Positions 31,544-64,000 of a DNA stretch of 64,000 nucleotides are shown here, one piece after another. The notes beneath the pieces were generated by a model that worked only from the letters and a program-made list of their open reading frames with translations, made no database searches and had not been told where the DNA came from. Each line of letters starts with the position of its first letter. Positions within the stretch are counted from its first letter, which is position 1. The stretch comes from an uncultured Bacteroidales bacterium (lineage in GTDB: Bacteria; Bacteroidota; Bacteroidia; Bacteroidales; ML635J-15): assembly GCA_937982115.1 (NCBI GenBank), contig CALJNE010000027.1, positions 462-64,461 on the forward strand, in the 5' to 3' direction. A program made the position numbers and the translations under genes.

Positions 31544-31972
31544 TTCTCAAATCAGCATGGTTCGAATATATAATCATTTCTGATAAAATTATATTCATTA
31601 CGCAAAATTTCGTTTATTTGTTCAATATTTATTTTATGAAAGAAAGTTTAAAAAACTATAACATAAGATCATAATTTTATACAATGAAAACAAAACCATA
31701 ATTCTTTTTCTGCTAAGAGTTTTTATTATTTATCTAAGCTGGAAAATATAACTGTTTATTTTAAGTGAAGAAAAAACTCCAATAGAAGAAATATATTGCC
31801 ATGGCTATCAAAGTCGAATTTTAAAATTGTAAAGATTACAAACAACAGTTTATTTTCCCAGATAAACTTCAAAACGAACATTAGATTAGATTCATTTAGT
31901 ACTCGGATGTGTTGAAAAATGTAGAAAGGAAAAGGCAATGACGAGCTTTTTTTTTTGGTGTTTTCTATTCAG

Positions 31973-32061
31973 CGGAGAGAGGGGGATTCGAACCCCCGGT
32001 CCCGAGTTATCAGGACAACGGTTTTCGAGACCGCCCCGTTCGACCACTCCGGCATCTCTCC
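31973..32061 (-). tRNA. tRNA-Ser (anticodon CGA), type II with a long variable arm, no encoded CCA
   Basis: The reverse complement is GGAGAGATGCCGGAGTGGTCGAACGGGGCGGTCTCGAAAACCGTTGTCCTGATAACTCGGGACCGGGGGTTCGAATCCCCCTCTCTCCG. It folds as a cloverleaf with anticodon loop CT-CGA-AA. Confidence 0.9.
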
Positions 32062-33344: not shown

Positions 33345-33434
33345 TGGCGGAGAAAGAGGGATTCGAACCCCCGGAGCCCTCGCGAGCTCAACGGTTTTCA
33401 AGACCGCCGCATTCGACCACTCTGCCATTTCTCC
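33345..33434 (-). tRNA. tRNA-Ser (anticodon TGA), type II, CCA encoded
   Basis: The reverse complement is GGAGAAATGGCAGAGTGGTCGAATGCGGCGGTCTTGAAAACCGTTGAGCTCGCGAGGGCTCCGGGGGTTCGAATCCCTCTTTCTCCGCCA, with anticodon loop CT-TGA-AA. Confidence 0.9.
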
Positions 33435-48251: not shown

Positions 48252-48252
48252 G

Positions 48253-48326
48253 TCGGGGTGAGTAGACTCGAACTACCGACCCCGCGCCCCCCAGACGCGT
48301 ACTCTAACCAACTGAGCTACACCCCG
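48253..48326 (-). tRNA. tRNA-Pro (anticodon GGG), no encoded CCA
   Basis: The reverse complement is CGGGGTGTAGCTCAGTTGGTTAGAGTACGCGTCTGGGGGGCGCGGGGTCGGTAGTTCGAGTCTACTCACCCCGA. It has the C1-G72 pair typical of bacterial tRNA-Pro and anticodon loop CT-GGG-GG. Confidence 0.85.
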
Positions 48327-51941: not shown

Positions 51942-52385
51942 ATGCTAAGGAATATCATTATTATTTTCAGTTTACTTATCAGCCTGCAAACTTTTTCACA
52001 AGAAGTACAAACCAAATGGTTTTATTCTATTAACAGAGCTGATGACGGTGCATATATTTTGAACATTAAAACTGAAATTCCGGATATATATTATATGTAT
52101 GGAATGAATATTAAAGAAGGTCCGCTACCATTGGAATTTAGTTTTGAAAATGCAGAAAATTTCCTTATAGAATACAATTTTTCAGAAATTACAGTTCCCG
52201 AAAAAGTTTTTGATGATGTATTTGGGATTGAAGTAAGTACTTATCATGGTTTAGCCGAATTCCAGTGTAAATTTATTCCAAAGGAAAATATTAGTTCTTT
52301 GAATCTGATAATTGATGGACAACTATGTAACAAGAAAGATGGCTCATGTTTTCCTTTGCGAAAAGAAATTAAAGTAAACTTTTAA
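51942..52385 (+). CDS. secreted protein resembling the DsbD N-terminal (DsbC-type, PF11412-like) domain
   Basis: Signal peptide, a beta-rich fold, and a C-terminal DGQLCNKKDGSCFPL pattern like the Cys...C.PP end of DsbD-alpha-like domains. This is a by-eye assignment. Confidence 0.35.
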   Translation: MLRNIIIIFSLLISLQTFSQEVQTKWFYSINRADDGAYILNIKTEIPDIYYMYGMNIKEGPLPLEFSFENAENFLIEYNFSEITVPEKVFDDVFGIEVSTYHGLAEFQCKFIPKENISSLNLIIDGQLCNKKDGSCFPLRKEIKVNF

Positions 52386-52399
52386 ATTGATATATTAAG

Positions 52400-53332
52400 A
52401 TGAGTGAAAAGGTAAAATGTTTGATTATTGGCAGTGGTCCCGCAGGATATACAGCTGCCATTTATGCTGCAAGAGCTAACCTAAATCCTGTTGTTTACGA
52501 AGGATTACAACCCGGCGGACAACTTACAACAACAACTGAAATTGAGAATTTTCCTGGTTTTCCCGAAGGAATTACCGGCCCCGAGTTGATGGACAGGATG
52601 AAAGCTCAAGCTCAAAGATTTGGTACTGATGTTCGTTTTGGATACATTACCAAAGTTGATTTTTCCGGATATCCGTTAAAAGTAATAGCAGACCACACTC
52701 ACGAAATTGAAGCCGAATCTGTTATTATTGCGACCGGAGCTACAGCTAAATATTTAGGCCTCGAATCAGAAGAAAAATTTAGGGGATTAGGTGTTTCGGC
52801 ATGCGCCACTTGCGATGGATTTTTCTATCGCGGTAAAGATGTTGCTGTTGTTGGTGGAGGAGATACTGCTTGCGAAGAAGCTTCGTATCTGGCCGGATTG
52901 TGTAACAAAGTTTACATGATTGTTCGTCGAGATGAATTGAGAGCATCTAAGGTAATGCAAAAAAGAGTCTTAAACAATCCCAAAATAGAAATTCTCTGGA
53001 ATCACAATACAGTTGAAATTCTCGGAGATAATAGCGGAGTTACAGGTGCAAAAATAATAAACAATAAAACCAAAGAAGAAAAAATCATCAATATTCATGG
53101 ATTTTTCCTTGCTATCGGACATACTCCCAATACTGATATTTTCAAAGAGTATCTGCAAACAGACGAAAACGGGTACATAATTACCGAAAAAGGAAGCACT
53201 AAAACTAACATCCCTGGAGTATTTGCCGCAGGTGATGTTCAGGATCCGAAATACAGGCAAGGAGTAACTGCTGCCGGTTCTGGTTGCATGGCAGCAAAAG
53301 ACGCAGAAACATTTCTAGCTGAAAAAGAATAA
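52400..53332 (+). CDS. trxB: thioredoxin-disulfide reductase
   Basis: GSGPAGYTAAIYAARA, the redox-active CATCDG, GGGDTACEEA and GDVQD are present. Confidence 0.95.
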   Translation: MSEKVKCLIIGSGPAGYTAAIYAARANLNPVVYEGLQPGGQLTTTTEIENFPGFPEGITGPELMDRMKAQAQRFGTDVRFGYITKVDFSGYPLKVIADHTHEIEAESVIIATGATAKYLGLESEEKFRGLGVSACATCDGFFYRGKDVAVVGGGDTACEEASYLAGLCNKVYMIVRRDELRASKVMQKRVLNNPKIEILWNHNTVEILGDNSGVTGAKIINNKTKEEKIINIHGFFLAIGHTPNTDIFKEYLQTDENGYIITEKGSTKTNIPGVFAAGDVQDPKYRQGVTAAGSGCMAAKDAETFLAEKE

Positions 53333-57774: not shown

Positions 57775-58149
57775 TTAGTTTTTATTTGATTTTAGTCTTT
57801 CCTGAAGGACCTGTAAAATATCAGAATTATTTGTCATTTCAAAAATCAGCTTTCGTCCATCTTTGCTTTCAATCTCAAATTTCAAATTTTTAAAACGATC
57901 CGTTTTATTAGTATGTGGTAATGGTTTTAAATTTGAAATATCTTTAAAAAGTAAATTTGATACTTTTCGAGCAGATGATATTTTAAATTTAAGCTTCGAG
58001 TTAATAAACGATAATGGTTTGAGATAAGTATTTTTAAATTCAATAAACAATTCATTTTCAGTTACATAAATATCAGAATCTCTTTCAACAAAACTATTTT
58101 TTTGCAAACTTGCCTTCTTTTGAATAATAACTTTTTCAAATCTTTCCAT
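57775..58149 (-). CDS. hypothetical protein (124 aa), divergent from the cytochrome operon
   Basis: I recognised no motif. I moved the start to the ATG (MERFEKV). Confidence 0.4.
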   Translation of the reverse strand: MERFEKVIIQKKASLQKNSFVERDSDIYVTENELFIEFKNTYLKPLSFINSKLKFKISSARKVSNLLFKDISNLKPLPHTNKTDRFKNLKFEIESKDGRKLIFEMTNNSDILQVLQERLKSNKN

Positions 58150-58229
58150 AACCCGAAAATGAGTTGACAAACTTATAAAATTATTTTTTCATAATTGCAA
58201 ATTTTGTTTTGAAAAATTCTAATTATTTT

Positions 58230-58243
58230 ATGATATAAATCAA
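58230..58243 (+). promoter_or_regulatory. candidate Crp/Fnr-type operator (ATGAT-N4-ATCAA)
   Basis: ATGATATAAATCAA matches the TTGAT-N4-ATCAA consensus at 9 of 10 positions and lies about 95 nt upstream of the cytochrome ATG. AT-rich background makes chance matches likely. Confidence 0.25.
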
Positions 58244-58330
58244 TATTTCACTTTTTTTAGAATTAGAATTGTTTTTTTGCTTAATTTCGCATTGTTAGTT
58301 ATTTAACAGCAATTTTGTAATTACAAGAAT

Positions 58331-59923
58331 ATGGAAATATTTGAAAGTTTTAAAAAGACATTTCTCTTCATTTTTATTGTTATTTTCCCGCTAACCATTA
58401 TTACTTTAGGGTTTAGTAATTTCTTTGAAAAAGAGGGTAATTTAGGAGAGTTAAAAGAAAAATACTCCAGGAAGAAGATTTCATCTGTGGATCATTCAAA
58501 GTTTGAAATTTTACAAAAAGACTTCAAGGATCCTCATGAAGTTACTGAAGCTTGTTTAAGTTGCCATACAGAGAGAGGAAAGGAATTAATGAGTACAGCA
58601 CATTGGAATTGGGAAAGAGAAGAATATATCGAAGGCAGAGGCATCACCTATTTAGGTAAAAAGAATTTGATAAATAATTTCTGCACAGGAATAATGACAA
58701 ATGAACGTTCGTGTAATAAATGTCATGCAGGATTGGGATGGACAGATAAAAGTTTTGATTTCAACAATCAATTAAATATAGATTGTTTGGTTTGTCATGA
58801 TAAAACCGGCACTTACGAAAAAGCTACGGGTATGGGCGGACATCCACCGGTAGGAGAAGATGCTCCGGATTATAAAAATATAGTGGCAAACGTTGGAAGG
58901 CCAATGAAACATAATTGCGGATATTGTCATTTTAACGGAGGTGGAGGGAACAATGTTAAACATGGCGATCTTGAAACAGCTTTACTTAATTGCGACCGAA
59001 ATGTGGATGTTCACATGGCAAAAGATGGTCTTGATATGAACTGTGTTGATTGCCATCCTGCTGAAAATCATCAAATTAAAGGAAAATATTATGCAGTATC
59101 TTCAAGTAATAAGAATCGAGCATATTGCACAGATTGTCATAATCCTGCACCACACAAACAGCAAATTTTAAACGAACATACCATAAAAGTTGATTGTCGC
59201 ACTTGCCATATTCCGCATTATGCAAAAGTAAATCCGACAAAACTTTATTGGGACTGGTCAACTGCCGGAGCAATAAAAGATGGTGAAGGATACTCCGTAA
59301 CAGACAGTTTAGGCAGAGAAGTTTATACTTCAAAAAAAGGCACTTTCATTTGGGGGACAAATGTTCAGCCCGAATATGTATGGTTTAACGGAACTGCTGA
59401 TCATTTTTTGATTACAGACAAAATAGAAACCGACACCATTAATATTAATACTCTATTTGGGTCATACGTTGATCCTAATTCAAAGATTATACCCATAAAA
59501 ATTCATAAAGGAAAACAGCCTTACGATTTAAAATATAAAACGTTATTACAAGCCAAATTGTGGGCTCCCGAAAAAGGAGAAGGGGCATTTTGGATGGATT
59601 TGAATTGGGATATTGCATTAAAATTAGGAATGGAATACGTTGGTTTACCTTTTAGCGGGCAATACGGATTTATAAATACAAGAGCATATCTACCTGTAAG
59701 CCACATGGTATCAAAATCCGAAGACGCAGTTTCTTGTAAAGAATGTCATAATCGTAAAAACAGCCGACTTAAAAACGTACCCGGAGTTTACATCCCAGCT
59801 ACAAGCTATAATAAAAACATAAATATGGCCGGAACTGCCCTAATGTTATTATCATTACTAGGAGTTTTAGGACATGCCGCTCTAAGAATAAGAGCTTCAT
59901 ACAAAAAAAAAACATCAATTTAA
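58331..59923 (+). CDS. octaheme c-type cytochrome, tetrathionate-reductase (OTR) family-like
   Basis: Eight CxxCH motifs are present (CLSCH, CNKCH, CLVCH, CGYCH, CVDCH, CTDCH, CRTCH, CKECH), with no CxxCK. Size is 530 aa. There is an N-terminal hydrophobic anchor or signal and a C-terminal hydrophobic helix (AGTALMLLSLLGVLGHAAL). Multiheme status is certain; OTR-family membership is a by-eye call. Confidence 0.7.
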   Translation: MEIFESFKKTFLFIFIVIFPLTIITLGFSNFFEKEGNLGELKEKYSRKKISSVDHSKFEILQKDFKDPHEVTEACLSCHTERGKELMSTAHWNWEREEYIEGRGITYLGKKNLINNFCTGIMTNERSCNKCHAGLGWTDKSFDFNNQLNIDCLVCHDKTGTYEKATGMGGHPPVGEDAPDYKNIVANVGRPMKHNCGYCHFNGGGGNNVKHGDLETALLNCDRNVDVHMAKDGLDMNCVDCHPAENHQIKGKYYAVSSSNKNRAYCTDCHNPAPHKQQILNEHTIKVDCRTCHIPHYAKVNPTKLYWDWSTAGAIKDGEGYSVTDSLGREVYTSKKGTFIWGTNVQPEYVWFNGTADHFLITDKIETDTININTLFGSYVDPNSKIIPIKIHKGKQPYDLKYKTLLQAKLWAPEKGEGAFWMDLNWDIALKLGMEYVGLPFSGQYGFINTRAYLPVSHMVSKSEDAVSCKECHNRKNSRLKNVPGVYIPATSYNKNINMAGTALMLLSLLGVLGHAALRIRASYKKKTSI

Positions 59924-59934
59924 TTTTATAAGTC

Positions 59935-60603
59935 ATGAAAAAAGTATATATTTATAAAGTATTCGAAAGATTTTGGCACTGGACACAATCAATTTTGATA
60001 TTCACATTGGCATTAACCGGATTTGAAGTTAACGGAGCCTATGAAGTGTTAGGATACGAAACAGCAGTAAATGTTCATAATTTCTCAGCAATTTCACTTA
60101 TCATTCTGATAATTTTTGCGATATTCTGGCATTTTACCACAGGAGAATGGAGACAATACATTCCTACAAAGAAAAACATGAAAGCTCAGATAGAATATTA
60201 CATTACAGGAATTTTCCGCAATGCTCCTCACCCAACCAGAAAAACAATACTCAGTAAACTTAATCCTTTGCAAAGATTAACTTATCTGGCATTGAAAATT
60301 ATTTTGATACCTCTGATGGTAATAACCGGAATTTTATATATGCTATACAGATACGGTATGAATGGGGAGATTCATTCTTTAAAAATCGGTTCACTTGAGC
60401 CAATTGCACTATTGCATACTATAGGAGCATTTTTAATTTTGGCTTTTGTTATTGCCCATATATATCTAACCACAACCGGACATACTCCAACAAGTAATAT
60501 CAAAGCAATGCTTACAGGATGGGAAGAATTGGAAGACGATGATGATGAAAAAAAAGAAAATAATGTTAATACGGAAAAAAACGAAAAAAATGAAAATGAA
60601 TAA
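59935..60603 (+). CDS. membrane di-heme b-type cytochrome (PhsC/FdnI/HydC-like quinol-interacting subunit)
   Basis: The ERFWHWTQ start is typical of this family. It has four TM helices with conserved His (WHW, VHNF, WHF, LLHT, AHIY). The C-terminal tail DDDDEKKENNVNTEKNEKNENE is acidic and low-complexity. Confidence 0.75.
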   Translation: MKKVYIYKVFERFWHWTQSILIFTLALTGFEVNGAYEVLGYETAVNVHNFSAISLIILIIFAIFWHFTTGEWRQYIPTKKNMKAQIEYYITGIFRNAPHPTRKTILSKLNPLQRLTYLALKIILIPLMVITGILYMLYRYGMNGEIHSLKIGSLEPIALLHTIGAFLILAFVIAHIYLTTTGHTPTSNIKAMLTGWEELEDDDDEKKENNVNTEKNEKNENE

Positions 60604-61648
60604 ATTTTGGTTTGTTCTGGCACTTTTGCCGATTATGTTTTTTTCGAGTTGCAAAAATAAACCCGAAGAACAAGTAAAAGCTTCAGATAAATTTGAAGTT
60701 TTAATTAAATTTCTTGAAGAAAATAAAGATATTGTAAATTCTGAAGATGTACCTTTTTACGTGCATTCTGATGTTGTTTTTTCGGGACTGAAAAAGAATT
60801 TTTTGATAATTGACTTAAGAGATTCTGCTGATTTTACAAGCGGACATATAAATAATTCAATAAATGTTCTTCCTGAAAATATTCTTGATTATTTTGAAAA
60901 TAGGATAAATCCCCCGGTATTTGATACAATAGTTCTTGTGTGTAATACAGGGTTTAAATCAGGTTTTACAGCAATGTGTCTTAGATATTTAGGTTACAAT
61001 AATGTTTTCCCTTTAAAATACGGTCTAAGTGAATGGAATAAATCAATTGCAGAAACATATTGGTTACCTAATTTTAAAGACATTCCTTCTGAAGAAATAG
61101 ATACAGTAACTCATCCAAAAAATTCTCCCGGCAAATATCCGGAAATTATTTCATCTTTATCACAGCCCGAAGACATTCTATATGAAAGGGTAAGTCAATT
61201 ATTAAAAGGGAATTTTGAGGATTACTTTATTTCTTTAAAAGATATTTTAGGGAATGAAGATAATTATTATCTATTGTGTTATTGGCCACAAGAAAGATAT
61301 AACAAAGGACATCTTAAAGGTTCAGTGCAATATGAGCAAAAAAAATCATTAAGAACTAATGAATTCCTAAATACTTTACCAATTGAAAAAACTATTGTAG
61401 TTTATTGTTACTCAGGATTTCATTCAAGTCAGGTTACAGCATTTTTAAGAATTATCGGCTATAATGCAAAAGCATTAAGATACGGGAGTAATTCGTTTAT
61501 GTATAGTAAAATAAAAGAAGAAGAACCTTCGGGGCGATATTTTTCGGAAGATAATATTTTTGATTTTCCATTAAAAAGTAATGTTAAAACAGAACCGACG
61601 GGACCTGTTGAGCAAGGCAAAAAGACTAAACCAAAAGGAGGATGTTAA
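60590..61648 (+). CDS. lipoprotein with two rhodanese domains and a C-terminal ...KPKGGC tail
   Basis: MKMNKFWFVLALLPIMFFSSC (lipobox). There are two rhodanese modules with active-site loops VCNTGFKS and YCYSGFHSS, then a flexible linker ending GKKTKPKGGC-stop. The start overlaps the cytochrome b stop by 14 nt. Confidence 0.8.
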   Translation: MKMNKFWFVLALLPIMFFSSCKNKPEEQVKASDKFEVLIKFLEENKDIVNSEDVPFYVHSDVVFSGLKKNFLIIDLRDSADFTSGHINNSINVLPENILDYFENRINPPVFDTIVLVCNTGFKSGFTAMCLRYLGYNNVFPLKYGLSEWNKSIAETYWLPNFKDIPSEEIDTVTHPKNSPGKYPEIISSLSQPEDILYERVSQLLKGNFEDYFISLKDILGNEDNYYLLCYWPQERYNKGHLKGSVQYEQKKSLRTNEFLNTLPIEKTIVVYCYSGFHSSQVTAFLRIIGYNAKALRYGSNSFMYSKIKEEEPSGRYFSEDNIFDFPLKSNVKTEPTGPVEQGKKTKPKGGC

Positions 61649-62181
61649 AACTAAAATCAAACAATATGAATCAGCATGATAAAGAAATAAAACCTTACAT
61701 GAATCCTTATCTGGCAGGATTCTTACTTGGAGTATTACTATTGTTAACAATTTTTATTTCCGGACGAGGTCTTGGAGCAAGCGGAGCAGTAAAATCAGCC
61801 GTAATTGCGGCTGCTAACGTGATAAATAAGAATGCCCCTCAAATTTCTGATTTTTTCAAAACACAGGAAAACCCACTAAAATCCTGGTTAGTTTTTGAAG
61901 TGTTGGGAGTTATGTTTGGAGCTTTTCTATCCGGTTTTATATCCAACAGATTAACATGGAAAATTGATAAAGGGCCAGGAATAAAGAACCATACAAGAAT
62001 TATTTTTGCAGTTGTTGGTGGAGCTCTTTTTGGAATAGGTTCGCAATTCGGAAGGGGTTGTACATCAGGCGCTGCGTTAAGCGGAATGGCCGTTTTCTCT
62101 GCCGGAGGATTTCTAACAATGATGGCAATATTTGGAACCGGTTATGTTCTTGCATACTTTTTTAGAAAATTATGGTTATAA
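61642..62181 (+). CDS. YeeE/YedE family sulfur-compound transporter, half-size subunit
   Basis: NPYLAGFLLGVLLLLTIFISGRGLGASGA and the conserved FGRGCTSGAALSG motif are present, with about four TM helices. The true start may be the Met at 61666. Confidence 0.8.
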   Translation: MLKLKSNNMNQHDKEIKPYMNPYLAGFLLGVLLLLTIFISGRGLGASGAVKSAVIAAANVINKNAPQISDFFKTQENPLKSWLVFEVLGVMFGAFLSGFISNRLTWKIDKGPGIKNHTRIIFAVVGGALFGIGSQFGRGCTSGAALSGMAVFSAGGFLTMMAIFGTGYVLAYFFRKLWL

Positions 62182-62198
62182 TTTAAATTTTTAAAGAA

Positions 62199-63416
62199 AT
62201 GGGACCACTAATACCTCAAAATATTATAAGCGGAGATTTAAACTTTTTCTTTGCTTTTCTCATAGGCGTAGCGTTCGGGTATATTCTCGAACAGTCCGGA
62301 TTTTCTTCCTCACGTAAACTTGCTGGAGTTTTTTATGGATATGATTTTGTTGTTCTTAAAGTATTTTTTACAGCCGGAATAACAGCAGCAACAGGAGTTT
62401 TCTTCTTTAGTTATTTGGGTTGGCTTGATATGGATATGGTTTACGTAAATCCTCTATATGTTAACTCCGCGATTATTGGTGGAGTTATTATGGGTTTTGG
62501 TTTTATTATGGGAGGATTTTGCCCGGGAACAGGAATTGTTGGTGCTGTAATCGGAAAAATTGATGCCATATTTTTTGTTATAGGAATTTTTATCGGAGTC
62601 TTTATTTTTGGTTATTTCTTTAACTCTTTTGAACCAATATATCATGCAAATTATAAAGGCAGCATGTTTGTTCACGATGCTTTAGGAATGTCGCAATCCT
62701 GGTTTTTATTTGTGCTTGTAATTGTGGCAATTATAGCATTTATCATAACTCAAAAAATTCAAGACAAATCAACCCGTTTTAAAGAATTAATTTCAAACAC
62801 TCAAAGTTTAAAAGCAACATGGACTGCAGCATTTATCATAATTTTAGCTTTTATTGCTATTTTCTTACCAAAAGAAAGAGTTAGTTATCTTTCGGAAATA
62901 AGCTCTGAAAAACTTGCAGAAGAAATTCGCAATCCAAACCGAAAATTACCCCCTGAACGTATCGCATACAGCATAATACACAATCTTAACGACCTTGTCC
63001 TTGTTGATGTTCGTTCGCCTCAAGAATATTCAGAATTTCATTTTCCGGGAGCAATAAACGTTCCTGTCAATCAAATTTTAAAACCCGAATTTAAAGATAT
63101 TGCTTTTGCTGAAAATAAAAAAACAGTATTCTACTCAAATGGAGGACAACTTTCTGAAATAGCATGGTTAGCCGCTGCAAGAGCAGGAAAGAAAAATGTT
63201 TATGTTTTGGCAGGTGGTTTAAATAATTTTATTAAAGTTATTTTTGGAGATGTTCCGAAATCAGAAGTTAAAGATATAATGGAATTAAGCGACAGAAAAT
63301 TCATTGAATCAGCCAGAACATTTTTTATGGAAGGTGAATTATCAAAACGTCAGATAATTTCTTCTAAACCGGCATCAAACCCGGGAATAACAAAAAAAGC
63401 TAAAGGTGGATGTTAA
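62199..63416 (+). CDS. YeeE/YedE half-transporter fused to a Cys-less rhodanese domain, with a C-terminal ...KAKGGC tail
   Basis: The N-terminal half carries the GGFCPGTG motif and TM helices. The C-terminal half has a rhodanese fold (LVLVDVRSPQEYSEFHFPGAINVP...VFYSNGGQLS...LAGGLNNF) in which Ser replaces the catalytic Cys. The final residues are ITKKAKGGC-stop, and this is the only Cys in the soluble part. Confidence 0.8.
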   Translation: MGPLIPQNIISGDLNFFFAFLIGVAFGYILEQSGFSSSRKLAGVFYGYDFVVLKVFFTAGITAATGVFFFSYLGWLDMDMVYVNPLYVNSAIIGGVIMGFGFIMGGFCPGTGIVGAVIGKIDAIFFVIGIFIGVFIFGYFFNSFEPIYHANYKGSMFVHDALGMSQSWFLFVLVIVAIIAFIITQKIQDKSTRFKELISNTQSLKATWTAAFIIILAFIAIFLPKERVSYLSEISSEKLAEEIRNPNRKLPPERIAYSIIHNLNDLVLVDVRSPQEYSEFHFPGAINVPVNQILKPEFKDIAFAENKKTVFYSNGGQLSEIAWLAAARAGKKNVYVLAGGLNNFIKVIFGDVPKSEVKDIMELSDRKFIESARTFFMEGELSKRQIISSKPASNPGITKKAKGGC

Positions 63417-63428
63417 AATTTTACAAAT

Positions 63429-64000
63429 ATGAAAGACAATCAATTATTTAACGGATCACTCATATTTTTTGTTATAATTATTGGTGCTCTGCTTATTAGT
63501 GCCATTAACAAAAATTATAAAGGATATAAAATTTCAAATAATGAATTTATAAATCATTTTAGTTCTCCGGACCTTGTTATCAACTGTAAAGAATTAAACA
63601 AAATTCTGGATACAAAATCTGATGATTATTTAATTGTTGATATTCGCAATCAAAATCTTTATAAAGCTATAAATATTCCCGGCTCTGTAAATATTATACC
63701 AGAAAAAGCCTTTGAAAAAGAAACTATTAGATTCCTTAAAAAATCAAATAAAAACATCTTAATAACATCCGATTCTCAAGAACAAGCTACTATTTATGCA
63801 GCATATTTTACTAACCTTGGCATTAAAGGGCTGAAAATTATTTCCGGTTCACCAGAATTGTATATTCAACAAAAAAATAATCCATCTTACTCTTTCTATA
63901 ACTCTGAAAAACAATCCTTCTCATATAGAAACTTTATCAAACTTGAAGAAAAAGACGAATCAAAAGACCTTAACCCGATTATGCAAAGAGCCAAAGGCGG
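63429..64000 (+). CDS. membrane-anchored rhodanese-like protein, truncated by the window end at ...MQRAKGG
   Basis: My own translation gives MKDNQLFNGSLIFFVIIIGALLISAI (TM)...YLIVDIRNQNLYKAINIPGSVNI...NILITSDSQEQATIYAAYF..., open to position 64000. Ser occupies the active-site position. The last readable residues are A-K-G-G. Confidence 0.7.
   Translation, partial: MKDNQLFNGSLIFFVIIIGALLISAINKNYKGYKISNNEFINHFSSPDLVINCKELNKILDTKSDDYLIVDIRNQNLYKAINIPGSVNIIPEKAFEKETIRFLKKSNKNILITSDSQEQATIYAAYFTNLGIKGLKIISGSPELYIQQKNNPSYSFYNSEKQSFSYRNFIKLEEKDESKDLNPIMQRAKG

Follow-up and report, generated by a model that had tools for sequence, protein, structure and literature searches.

What is an octaheme cytochrome of the octaheme tetrathionate reductase (OTR) family doing in front of a cytochrome b, a set of rhodaneses and a transporter of the YeeE/YedE type? 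This question is raised by the end of a 64,000-nt stretch of DNA from an uncultured Bacteroidales bacterium (hereafter the window), where positions 58331-64000 hold six consecutive open reading frames (ORFs) on the plus strand. The physiological role of OTR is still unresolved (PMC12949373), and its function in vivo has been unsettled since the structure of 2004; this operon offers a testable, sulfur-based answer. Comparison of its proteins with their homologues suggests that the six genes probably encode a membrane-bound, periplasm-facing respiratory module, which would use menaquinol to reduce an inorganic sulfur compound. An initial annotation of the window had already read them as a sulfur reductase. 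This reading is supported by our results and strengthened by a paralogous module found behind Psr/Phs-type operons, while the substrate, the direction of the reaction and the import of sulfur are what we infer from them.

The ORF listing and translations bore out the layout proposed in that annotation, with gaps of -14 to +17 nt between the six genes when the later start codons are used, that is, those picked by gene callers on 96%-identical contigs. Pfam and NCBIfam likewise agreed with all six of its domain assignments. Gene 1 (58331-59923, 530 amino acids (aa)) encodes an OTR-family octaheme cytochrome c with an N-terminal signal or anchor and a periplasmic heme domain, and gene 2 (59935-60603, 222 aa) a cytochrome b of the PhsC/FdnI/HyaC type. 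They are followed by gene 3, a periplasmic lipoprotein with two rhodanese domains (60590-61648, 352 aa; alternative start at 60539, 369 aa), gene 4, a half-size YeeE (61642-62181, 179 aa; alternative start at 61666, 171 aa), gene 5, a fusion of the N-terminal half of YeeE to a rhodanese domain (62199-63416, 405 aa), and gene 6, a rhodanese-fold protein anchored by a transmembrane (TM) helix, which starts at 63429 and is truncated by the end of the window. All lie on the plus strand, and a terminator scan saw no convincing plus-strand terminator inside the cluster. No exact-sequence match to the window proteins, the fusion protein included, was found in the contig index. An OTR 96% identical to that of the window (P0001) is present on more than 20 contigs (at least 21) of 40-118 kb with identical gene order, and these contigs served to view the DNA beyond the window end. 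Gene 6 has lost only about 8 nt before its stop codon; the complete version on one such contig (L001) is 192 aa long and ends in QRAKGGC.

The product of gene 1 carries eight CxxCH motifs. It scores 560.5 bits against TIGR04315 (cutoff 375), covering profile positions 1-440 of 440, and 206 bits against PF11783, and its residues 59-479 align with the Shewanella OTR 1SP3 at an E-value of 1e-118. Given the above-cutoff TIGR04315 score and the 1SP3 match, gene 1 is, judged by its sequence, a genuine member of the OTR family, as the initial annotation had proposed, and not an epsilon-HAO/ONR protein, the alternative that the same annotation had kept in view. We built an alignment of 241 OTRs, of which 121 are relatives of the window protein (here called FCB-type) and 120 are proteobacterial relatives of the Shewanella enzyme. 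Eight CxxCH motifs are found in 240 of these sequences, and two further residues, Lys110 and Cys118, are invariant in all 241, which again speaks against the epsilon-HAO/ONR assignment. Both residues belong to the active-site segment GKKNLINNFC (58658-58684, plus strand), located by alignment to 1SP3, where Lys110 matches Lys56, the lysine of the GKKN motif. From Mowat et al. 2004 we take Lys56, which is remote from the CxxCH motifs, to be the ligand of the active-site heme (heme 2). A literature search on Lys56 and Cys64 of OTR gave nothing usable. Cys118 is an invariant cysteine that does not bind heme and adjoins the active site, and it would suit thiol or persulfide exchange.

The window protein differs from its Shewanella relative in one major respect. 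It is about 65 residues longer, and at its C-terminal end it contains an extra TM helix (residues 499-521; 59825-59893, plus strand) with invariant His515 and Arg519. All 121 FCB-type OTRs possess the helix with these two residues; none of the 120 proteobacterial ones does. Helices at the C-termini of FdnH and of hydrogenase small subunits dock on their cytochrome b, and the helix of the FCB-type OTRs is presumed to be a docking helix of the same kind. The OTR of Shewanella oneidensis (PDB 1SP3) and that of the window share family, eight CxxCH motifs, the heme-ligand lysine and the neighbouring cysteine, but Shewanella-type OTRs are soluble proteins of about 460 aa (445-486 aa among the proteobacterial sequences), with no C-terminal TM helix and no cytochrome b, YeeE or rhodanese partner. 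As predicted from these features, the window cytochrome, with 530 aa and a C-terminal TM helix, is a member of a distinct membrane-anchored OTR subclass and not of the soluble Shewanella type.

The candidate partner of this helix is encoded by gene 2. Its product matches PF01292 with 89.9 bits (gathering threshold 30.1), in keeping with the initial call of a cytochrome b, and its best NCBIfam match is PhsC (NF011582), at 98 bits; this score lies below the cutoff of 204 and the protein is hence not a PhsC equivalog. Six histidines (His15, 48, 66, 99, 161 and 175) are kept at 95-100% among 78 homologues and are candidates for the ligands of two hemes b. The protein is presumed to act as menaquinol dehydrogenase and as membrane anchor. 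It ends in an acidic low-complexity tail (window 60520-60603; EELEDDDDEKKENNVNTEKNEKNENE), the sequence of which is not conserved among homologues, yet is usually acidic.

The initial annotation had asked whether this synteny is conserved across Bacteroidota or unique to the contig. In a scan with one genome per species, the best 80 of roughly 600 or more genome hits, that is, the closest relatives, were loci from Bacteroidota (including Bacteroidales, Lentimicrobiaceae, Prolixibacteraceae, Salinivirgaceae and Rikenellaceae), Ignavibacteriota, one Chlorobiota metagenome-assembled genome (MAG) and LCP-89, which disposes of the idea of a feature peculiar to one contig. We counted gene content in 69 non-redundant loci with at least 4.2 kb of DNA downstream of the OTR gene, searching their ORFs with the six window proteins. 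Cytochrome b directly follows OTR in all of them, rhodaneses are present in all of them, and the half YeeE followed by the YeeE::rhodanese fusion is found in 65. The full six-gene order occurs in at least 26 of the 69, with two more in which the sixth gene is divergent, and a minimal four-gene core in 33. The four loci without a YeeE pair (Carboxylicivirga, Saccharicrinis and a Cytophagales MAG) retain OTR and cytochrome b. This arrangement recurs in dozens of species-level genomes as well as in metagenome contigs, and is hence far beyond chance.

Most carriers of the operon are anaerobic, fermentative members of the Bacteroidales, Ignavibacteria and Prolixibacteraceae and come from digesters, sediments or sulfidic springs. 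Cultured strains are among them (Mariniphaga anaerophila DSM 26910, Roseimarinus sediminis DSM 28824 and Saccharicrinis sp. FJH54), so that the idea is testable now. One of the YeeE-less variants, from Carboxylicivirga sp. RSCT41 (L064 7857-13746; L054, L076 and L079 are similar), continues after OTR and cytochrome b with a 169-aa lipoprotein rhodanese that has an active-site cysteine and ends in GGGC. Behind it come two double rhodaneses, of 330 and 279 aa, with a porin-like protein of 339 aa between them. That periplasmic rhodaneses still follow OTR and cytochrome b at this YeeE-less locus favours the reading of the operon as a sulfur reductase. No extra gene recurs in the flanks of the loci beyond regulators in subsets of them. 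At 16 loci (for example L045 7495-7959), mostly of Ignavibacteriota type, the gene directly upstream of OTR on the same strand encodes a MerR-family regulator of about 154 aa. Its C-terminal domain is rich in Cys, and the protein is a candidate sensor of redox state or sulfur; the gene is not in the window.

The proteobacterial OTRs have other neighbours. In Shewanella algae (L085 3814-7401) and Marinobacter (L086 3900-7383) the gene closes a trio in which a monoheme cytochrome c (108 aa) comes first and a DUF3373 protein (about 570 aa) second, and in Malonomonas it stands alone. The Shewanella algae trio adjoins a divergent psrABC-like operon. Neither cytochrome b nor YeeE, rhodanese or SoxYZ was found at these three loci. 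As a consequence, the association appears limited to the membrane-anchored FCB-type clade, and we dropped the idea that all OTRs pair with carrier proteins.

These counts bear on the possibility that OTR and cytochrome b form a quinol:nitrite or quinol:hydroxylamine reductase serving ammonification or detoxification, the sulfur genes being a separate neighbour. The OTR fold is related to NrfA and HAO, and purified OTR is much faster on nitrite and hydroxylamine than on tetrathionate (Atkinson 2007, as reported in PMC12949373). However, the sulfur genes are packed against OTR with the small gaps given above, the YeeE pair and the rhodaneses are kept in nearly all and in all of the species counted (65/69 and 69/69), and the fused YeeE::rhodanese gene always lies behind OTR and cytochrome b where enough upstream DNA is available (26/26, see below). 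No nitrogen-cycle genes recur in the flanks. We consequently regard a nitrogen-oxide reductase as very unlikely, and the FCB-type operon as the best genomic case made to date for these OTRs acting on sulfur and not on nitrogen compounds.

What, then, do the accessory genes add? Gene 4 matches PF04143 at profile positions 169-309 only, the C-terminal half of YeeE, while gene 5 covers positions 6-196 and continues into a PF00581 rhodanese domain. Each half contains one pore cysteine that is 100% conserved: Cys140 in gene 4 (62059-62061, plus strand; 72 homologues) and Cys108 in gene 5 (62520-62522, plus strand). Full-length YeeE/TsuA is a single chain of about 330-350 aa with nine TM helices and three conserved cysteines. 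Its Cys91 and Cys293 are essential (PMC7449682), and half-size PmpB and PmpA match its N- and C-terminal halves with one cysteine each and have been proposed to form a heterodimer (PMC11582611). The window system has two chains with one conserved cysteine each, encoded by adjacent genes as in pmpAB. By these profile coordinates, and with the definition taken from PMC11582611, gene 4 is predicted to be PmpA-like and the N-terminal part of gene 5 PmpB-like, that is, a split YeeE pair retaining the Cys293 and Cys91 equivalents. By analogy the two may form a YeeE-like heterodimer. The window halves (179 and about 225 aa) are larger than PmpAB (about 130 aa), and they are not TsuA equivalogs, the TsuA models giving them only 35 bits against a cutoff of 400 and 16.5 against 645. 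PmpAB relatives import zero-valent sulfur (PMC11582611).

YedE has been linked to selenium metabolism, and the initial annotation had therefore offered a selenium-related role as an alternative. In its full form this would have the YedE-like channel and the rhodanese-like proteins traffic selenium (or tellurium), and OTR reduce selenite or other selenium species. There are indeed weak NCBIfam matches to selenium-related rhodanese and YedE models, but these fall far below cutoff: YedE/FdhT (NF033796) scores 26.2 and 20.6 bits against a cutoff of 350, and TsoB 15-23 bits against 805. Furthermore, neither the gene tables of L001-L004 around the cluster nor the recurrent flanking genes showed selD, selA or any feature of the selenocysteine insertion sequence (SECIS) type, and the partners of the paralogous module described below are Psr/Phs-type enzymes. 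On the NCBIfam scores this alternative was rejected, and we consider a selenium function highly improbable.

The rhodanese-bearing proteins hold a feature of the operon that had so far gone unnoticed. It had been assumed that they transfer sulfane sulfur as rhodaneses do. This stands for gene 3, which matches PF00581 twice and has a catalytic cysteine in each loop (CNTGFKS and CYSGFHS). Among 34 homologues, its lipobox cysteine (Cys38) is conserved in 100%, the catalytic cysteines in 79% (domain 1) and 91% (domain 2), and a cysteine at the very C-terminus in 97%; lipoproteins of this type are found in about 30 of the 69 loci, mainly in Bacteroidales and Lentimicrobium. In contrast, the loop position is occupied by Ser, Ala or Gly in 67 of 68 fusions of the gene 5 type, and by Gly, Ala or Ser in 29 of 29 TM-anchored proteins of the gene 6 type (PF00581 at 37.6 bits behind an N-terminal TM helix). 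Since their active-site cysteine is missing, genes 5 and 6 cannot be classical sulfurtransferases, and the assumption fails for them.

The conserved thiol of these proteins is instead at the end of a C-terminal GGC tail. All three rhodanese-bearing proteins of the window terminate in K-G-G-C-COOH: gene 3 (codons 61637-61645, plus strand), gene 5, whose disordered tail ends in KGGC (63405-63413, plus strand), and gene 6, as read from L001. In the fusion, the only conserved cysteines are the channel Cys108 and this terminal residue. Across the loci, 33/37 lipoproteins, 67/68 fusions and 26/28 TM-anchored rhodaneses (a terminal cysteine in 26-27 of the 28) carry a C-terminal GGC, in some cases with one to three residues after it. 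Most tails end in K-x-V-x-GGC, and GGCGG or GGCS is met occasionally. As a background, only 6 of 546 flanking proteins have a GGC-type end; five of these belong to the same family and just one is unrelated.

We then asked how widespread the tail is, using the rhodanese-plus-tail part of gene 5 in an exhaustive HMMER search against 1.84 billion cluster representatives. With a limit of E<=1e-3 this retrieved 2293 proteins, and with E<=1e-10 it retrieved 201. Among the best 149 representatives, 93 are single-domain proteins of 161-260 aa, and 88 of these 93 end in GGC, in GGC plus one to three residues or in a similar xGC; one protein ends in GGCGG. None of these proteins reaches the cutoff of an NCBIfam model. 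Ends of the GGCGG or GGCGS form, as in the SoxY carrier arm, were seen in this tail family in the fusions of L133 (QGGCGG) and L137 (QGGCGS) and in protein P0446 (SSGGCGG). The same search also retrieved giant proteins with 4-16 tandem rhodanese domains and no cysteine at the end (among them P0361, of 2327 aa, P0367, P0369 and P0373).

In full-length YeeE the N-terminus faces outward and the C-terminus inward, with helix 7 reversing the topology between two four-TM halves (PMC7449682). The fusion consists of the N-terminal half of YeeE plus helix 7, one further TM helix, the rhodanese-fold domain and the tail. In 49 six-TM fusion homologues, the mean number of Lys and Arg per loop was 0.08, 0.10 and 1.08 for loops 0, 2 and 4, and 1.96, 0.43 and 3.96 for loops 1, 3 and 5. 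This pattern points to a protein with its N-terminus outside, six TM helices and its C-terminus outside, placing the rhodanese domain and the tail in the periplasm, which fits the predicted N-out topology taken over from YeeE. In unfused pairs the N-terminal YeeE half would end inside and is accompanied by a TM-anchored rhodanese; for the two to be joined into a fusion, the anchor must run N-in/C-out, giving the same sidedness. An AlphaFold2 (AF2) model of the fusion, built from a 72-sequence alignment, reached a mean predicted local distance difference test (pLDDT) of 76. Its rhodanese domain is modelled with a pLDDT above 90, and the top PDB matches in Foldseek are single-domain rhodaneses; YeeE (6LEO) was not retrieved with this model, only the rhodanese domain. 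Residues 383-405, the tail, are disordered in the model (pLDDT 36-44), as would be expected of a flexible arm.

Does the accessory set occur without OTR? We scanned metagenomes with an alignment of fusion proteins as the seed, and the closest 80 loci, all additional to those above, comprise 58 of the fused type and 22 of an unfused type. For the fused type, OTR is found upstream in 26/26 loci with at least 2.9 kb of upstream DNA, and cytochrome b in 42/43 with at least 1.3 kb. The unfused type is made of a half YeeE, a 196-aa N-terminal-half YeeE and one or two TM-anchored rhodanese-fold proteins of about 205 aa, which are without the loop cysteine and end in a basic stretch plus GGC. Here the position of OTR is taken by another enzyme. 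Indeed, of the 9 unfused loci that offer 4.3 kb or more of upstream DNA, 8 have a three-gene Psr/Phs-type operon directly before the module on the same strand, and the end of such an operon is visible on five shorter contigs; it was not seen upstream in L148, and the shorter L135 showed no trace of it. The operon encodes a molybdopterin subunit of about 748 aa with a twin-arginine translocation (TAT) signal, a four-cluster iron-sulfur protein and a membrane subunit of the NrfD type. The best NCBIfam match of the molybdopterin subunit is PhsA, at 466-486 bits, below the cutoff of 694 but far above its other matches. Furthermore, in a Bacteroidales MAG (L013 2010-13753) and a Draconibacterium MAG (L057 1191-12055), the OTR cluster is directly preceded, on the same strand, by a Psr-type cluster that has a module of its own, demonstrating that a single organism can carry both versions in tandem. 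Molybdopterin subunits of the Psr, Phs or Ttr kind are absent from the window cluster and present in the paralogous ones (L013, L057, L095, L099 and others).

The YeeE pair and the GGC arms are thus a portable accessory of either a Psr/Phs-like reductase with an NrfD anchor or OTR with cytochrome b, and the latter holds the position of PsrABC: a non-homologous displacement at a fixed operon position. This is the strongest available evidence that OTR and cytochrome b form a quinol-linked reductase of the same class of sulfur substrates. On the Psr/Phs parallel, polysulfide or S0 and thiosulfate are favoured over tetrathionate and sulfite; the most likely substrates would be polysulfide or thiosulfate-type sulfane sulfur, with tetrathionate possible. 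Sulfite has been put forward as an OTR substrate as a recent suggestion only (PMC12949373).

The same parallel has to be set against an oxidative direction, in which OTR and cytochrome b would oxidise sulfide or thiosulfate and pass the electrons to menaquinone, the GGC arms catching the zero-valent sulfur or thiosulfonate and YeeE importing it. Cytochromes b of the FdnI/HyaC type do reduce quinone in formate dehydrogenase and hydrogenase. SoxY-type arms and the YeeE-like importers named SoxT belong to oxidative pathways (PMC11582611, PMC11237559), and in lucinid symbionts otr stands beside divergent soxY-S3/soxZ genes (PMC11237559), an adjacency that may also be an independent hint of OTRs meeting swinging-arm carriers. 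Nevertheless, the Psr/Phs-like enzymes served by the paralogous module are known above all for reduction, the best match of the cytochrome b is PhsC, the carriers are for the most part the anaerobic fermenters mentioned above, and the thiosulfate/tetrathionate couple (+198 mV, PMC8528874) cannot reduce menaquinone. Moreover, there are no cytoplasmic sulfur-oxidation genes nearby, either on the near-identical contigs or among the recurrent flanking genes. We consider oxidation an unlikely direction for this system.

If the operon works as a reductase, its parts can be arranged as follows. Cytochrome b, with the C-terminal helix of OTR docked on it, would oxidise menaquinol, and electrons would travel via all eight c-hemes to the active-site heme with its Lys ligand. 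As swinging-arm carriers in the manner of SoxY or DsrC, the terminal cysteines would take up sulfane sulfur, with polysulfide or S0 as its source, or else a thiosulfonate group, donated by tetrathionate or thiosulfate. Polysulfide, S8 and tetrathionate react with thiols spontaneously, and the arms might be loaded in this way or through the active lipoprotein rhodanese, in the latter case possibly from thiosulfate. OTR would then reduce the bound or free sulfur species to sulfide (or thiosulfate), and the YeeE heterodimer might pass sulfur species over the inner membrane by a cysteine relay running from the tail cysteine to Cys140 and on to Cys108.

A bolder idea, which we put forward tentatively as possible rather than probable, is that rhodanese-fold proteins with GGC tails make up a widespread and hitherto overlooked class of swinging-arm carriers in the periplasm, analogous in function to SoxY and DsrC, that the persulfide, polysulfide or thiosulfonate on their cysteine is the true substrate of FCB-type OTRs and of the paralogous Psr/Phs-like enzymes, and that the same arm feeds the split YeeE channel. 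OTR would then be a quinol:carrier-protein-persulfide (or thiosulfonate) reductase, and sulfur biochemistry would gain a new carrier family. Such a substrate would account for the failure of both free-tetrathionate assays and Shewanella genetics to uncover the role of OTR.

Several points weigh against a sulfur reductase. The standard potentials of polysulfide and persulfide lie below that of menaquinone, and their reduction would thus need low product levels or help from the proton-motive force, as for Psr/Phs. The direction of electron flow is not readable from sequence. As to the enzyme itself, the preference for nitrite and hydroxylamine over tetrathionate in vitro, as PMC12949373 relates it, counts here too, and OTR is dispensable for tetrathionate respiration in Shewanella ANA-3, this genetic study of 2026 finding it once more unnecessary (PMC12949373). 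Each scan covers the closest 80 relatives and not the whole family, and the sulfur link may hold for the FCB-type clade alone, as proteobacterial OTRs are without the accessory genes. Finally, the topology of gene 6 is ambiguous by charge alone, and the YeeE half of the AF2 model is of low confidence (pLDDT of about 50-75), as may be expected for one half of a heterodimer. For this reason we assigned the topology from the positive-inside count, from the coordinates of the Pfam profile matches and from what has been published on YeeE.

The DNA beyond the window, which the initial annotation had proposed to inspect, brings in a further alternative. On the near-identical contigs the operon ends after gene 6, and no gene of the TusA/DsrE type follows it. 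Next (L001 15708-21596, corresponding to about window position 64040 onward) comes an ORF of 330 aa in convergent orientation, whose N-terminus is rich in Cys and which may be an insertion element or transposase. Beyond it, on the minus strand, are encoded an HD protein, a CysN-like protein (GTP_EFTU), a CysD-like protein (PAPS_reduct), a PHO4 permease and a CysH-like protein. The CysN, CysD, PHO4 and CysH-like genes are an assimilatory sulfate-activation cluster. The whole operon might accordingly scavenge sulfur for assimilation: sulfide or sulfane sulfur freed from polysulfide, thiosulfate, tetrathionate or organic polysulfanes would be imported through YeeE for cysteine synthesis, with OTR and cytochrome b only supplying reducing equivalents. 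YeeE/TsuA imports thiosulfate for assimilation, and relatives of PmpAB increase the sulfane sulfur of cells (PMC7449682, PMC11582611). Among the accessories the channel is conserved best (65/69 loci), and the cysH-PHO4-cysD-cysN genes lie about 1.5 kb downstream, on the other strand. However, an eight-heme enzyme with a quinol dehydrogenase would be a costly means to this end, the module also accompanies respiratory reductases of the Psr/Phs type, the operon encodes no cytoplasmic acceptor (TusA, YeeD or DsrE), and some loci lack any YeeE. The cys genes, moreover, are set off by the insertion-like ORF and are not among the recurrent flanking genes of other loci. Assimilatory scavenging is hence unlikely, though of the alternatives raised it has the most to recommend it.

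A respiratory sulfur reductase would resemble several known systems without being any of them. PsrABC with Sud of Wolinella succinogenes and PhsABC of Salmonella likewise have their catalytic subunit in the periplasm, a quinol dehydrogenase in the membrane and rhodanese-like proteins that present sulfur on the periplasmic side, but in the window the catalytic subunit is an octaheme cytochrome c and not a molybdopterin enzyme, and there is neither an iron-sulfur subunit nor an NrfD-type anchor. The operon would therefore be a heme-based counterpart of the molybdenum polysulfide and thiosulfate reductases. Its carriers also differ from Sud, as their conserved thiol is on a C-terminal tail and not in the active-site loop of the rhodanese. 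In this they are like SoxYZ and DsrC, which have a single conserved cysteine at a flexible C-terminal end; SoxYZ is also periplasmic and partners sulfur redox enzymes, and the Gly-Gly before the cysteine recalls the GGCGG arm motif of SoxY. In contrast to SoxYZ, the window carriers have a rhodanese fold and are membrane-tethered or fused to a channel, and an adduct on their cysteine is a proposal only. No cluster protein has a SoxY or SoxZ match in Pfam, and the resemblance is one of function, confined to the arm-like GGC terminus, and not one of membership. YeeE/TsuA-YeeD and PmpA/PmpB share PF04143 with the window pair, but the cytoplasmic YeeD or TusA partner of the former is replaced by a periplasmic domain fused to the channel. 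MccA/SirA, the octaheme sulfite reductase that works with SirCD (iron-sulfur and NrfD proteins), is a further octaheme terminal reductase of a sulfur oxyanion wired to quinol by dedicated membrane subunits; its cytochrome family and membrane module are different, and it has no rhodanese or YeeE accessories.

In metagenomic surveys of the sulfur cycle, otr genes are routinely scored as tetrathionate reduction potential (PMC9040765, PMC8528874). The operon described here points in addition to a new family of periplasmic sulfur carriers. Our literature search found no description of the operon or of GGC-tailed rhodaneses, although most subscription journals were outside its scope and this absence is no proof, and no curated family describing either was found.

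The region upstream of the operon (58171-58330, plus strand) is an AT-rich intergenic stretch of 160 nt that is presumed to hold the promoter. It follows a divergent gene on the minus strand (57775-58170), the product of which has no Pfam match. Sigma-70-like matches in this region are no commoner than in shuffled sequence, and the exact Bacteroidota motif TAnnTTTG was not found upstream of the operon. About 5 kb upstream (window positions of about 51943-53332, transferred from L001 3612-5001), behind a pair of genes for a TonB-dependent receptor and a DUF4249 protein, a DsbD_N-domain protein and a thioredoxin-reductase-like flavoprotein are expected, possibly a supply of periplasmic thiol redox equivalents. 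A search of the window with Rfam yielded no RNA family other than three tRNAs, all on the minus strand: tRNA-Ser(CGA) at 31972-32061, tRNA-Ser(UGA) at 33345-33434 and tRNA-Pro(GGG) at 48252-48326.

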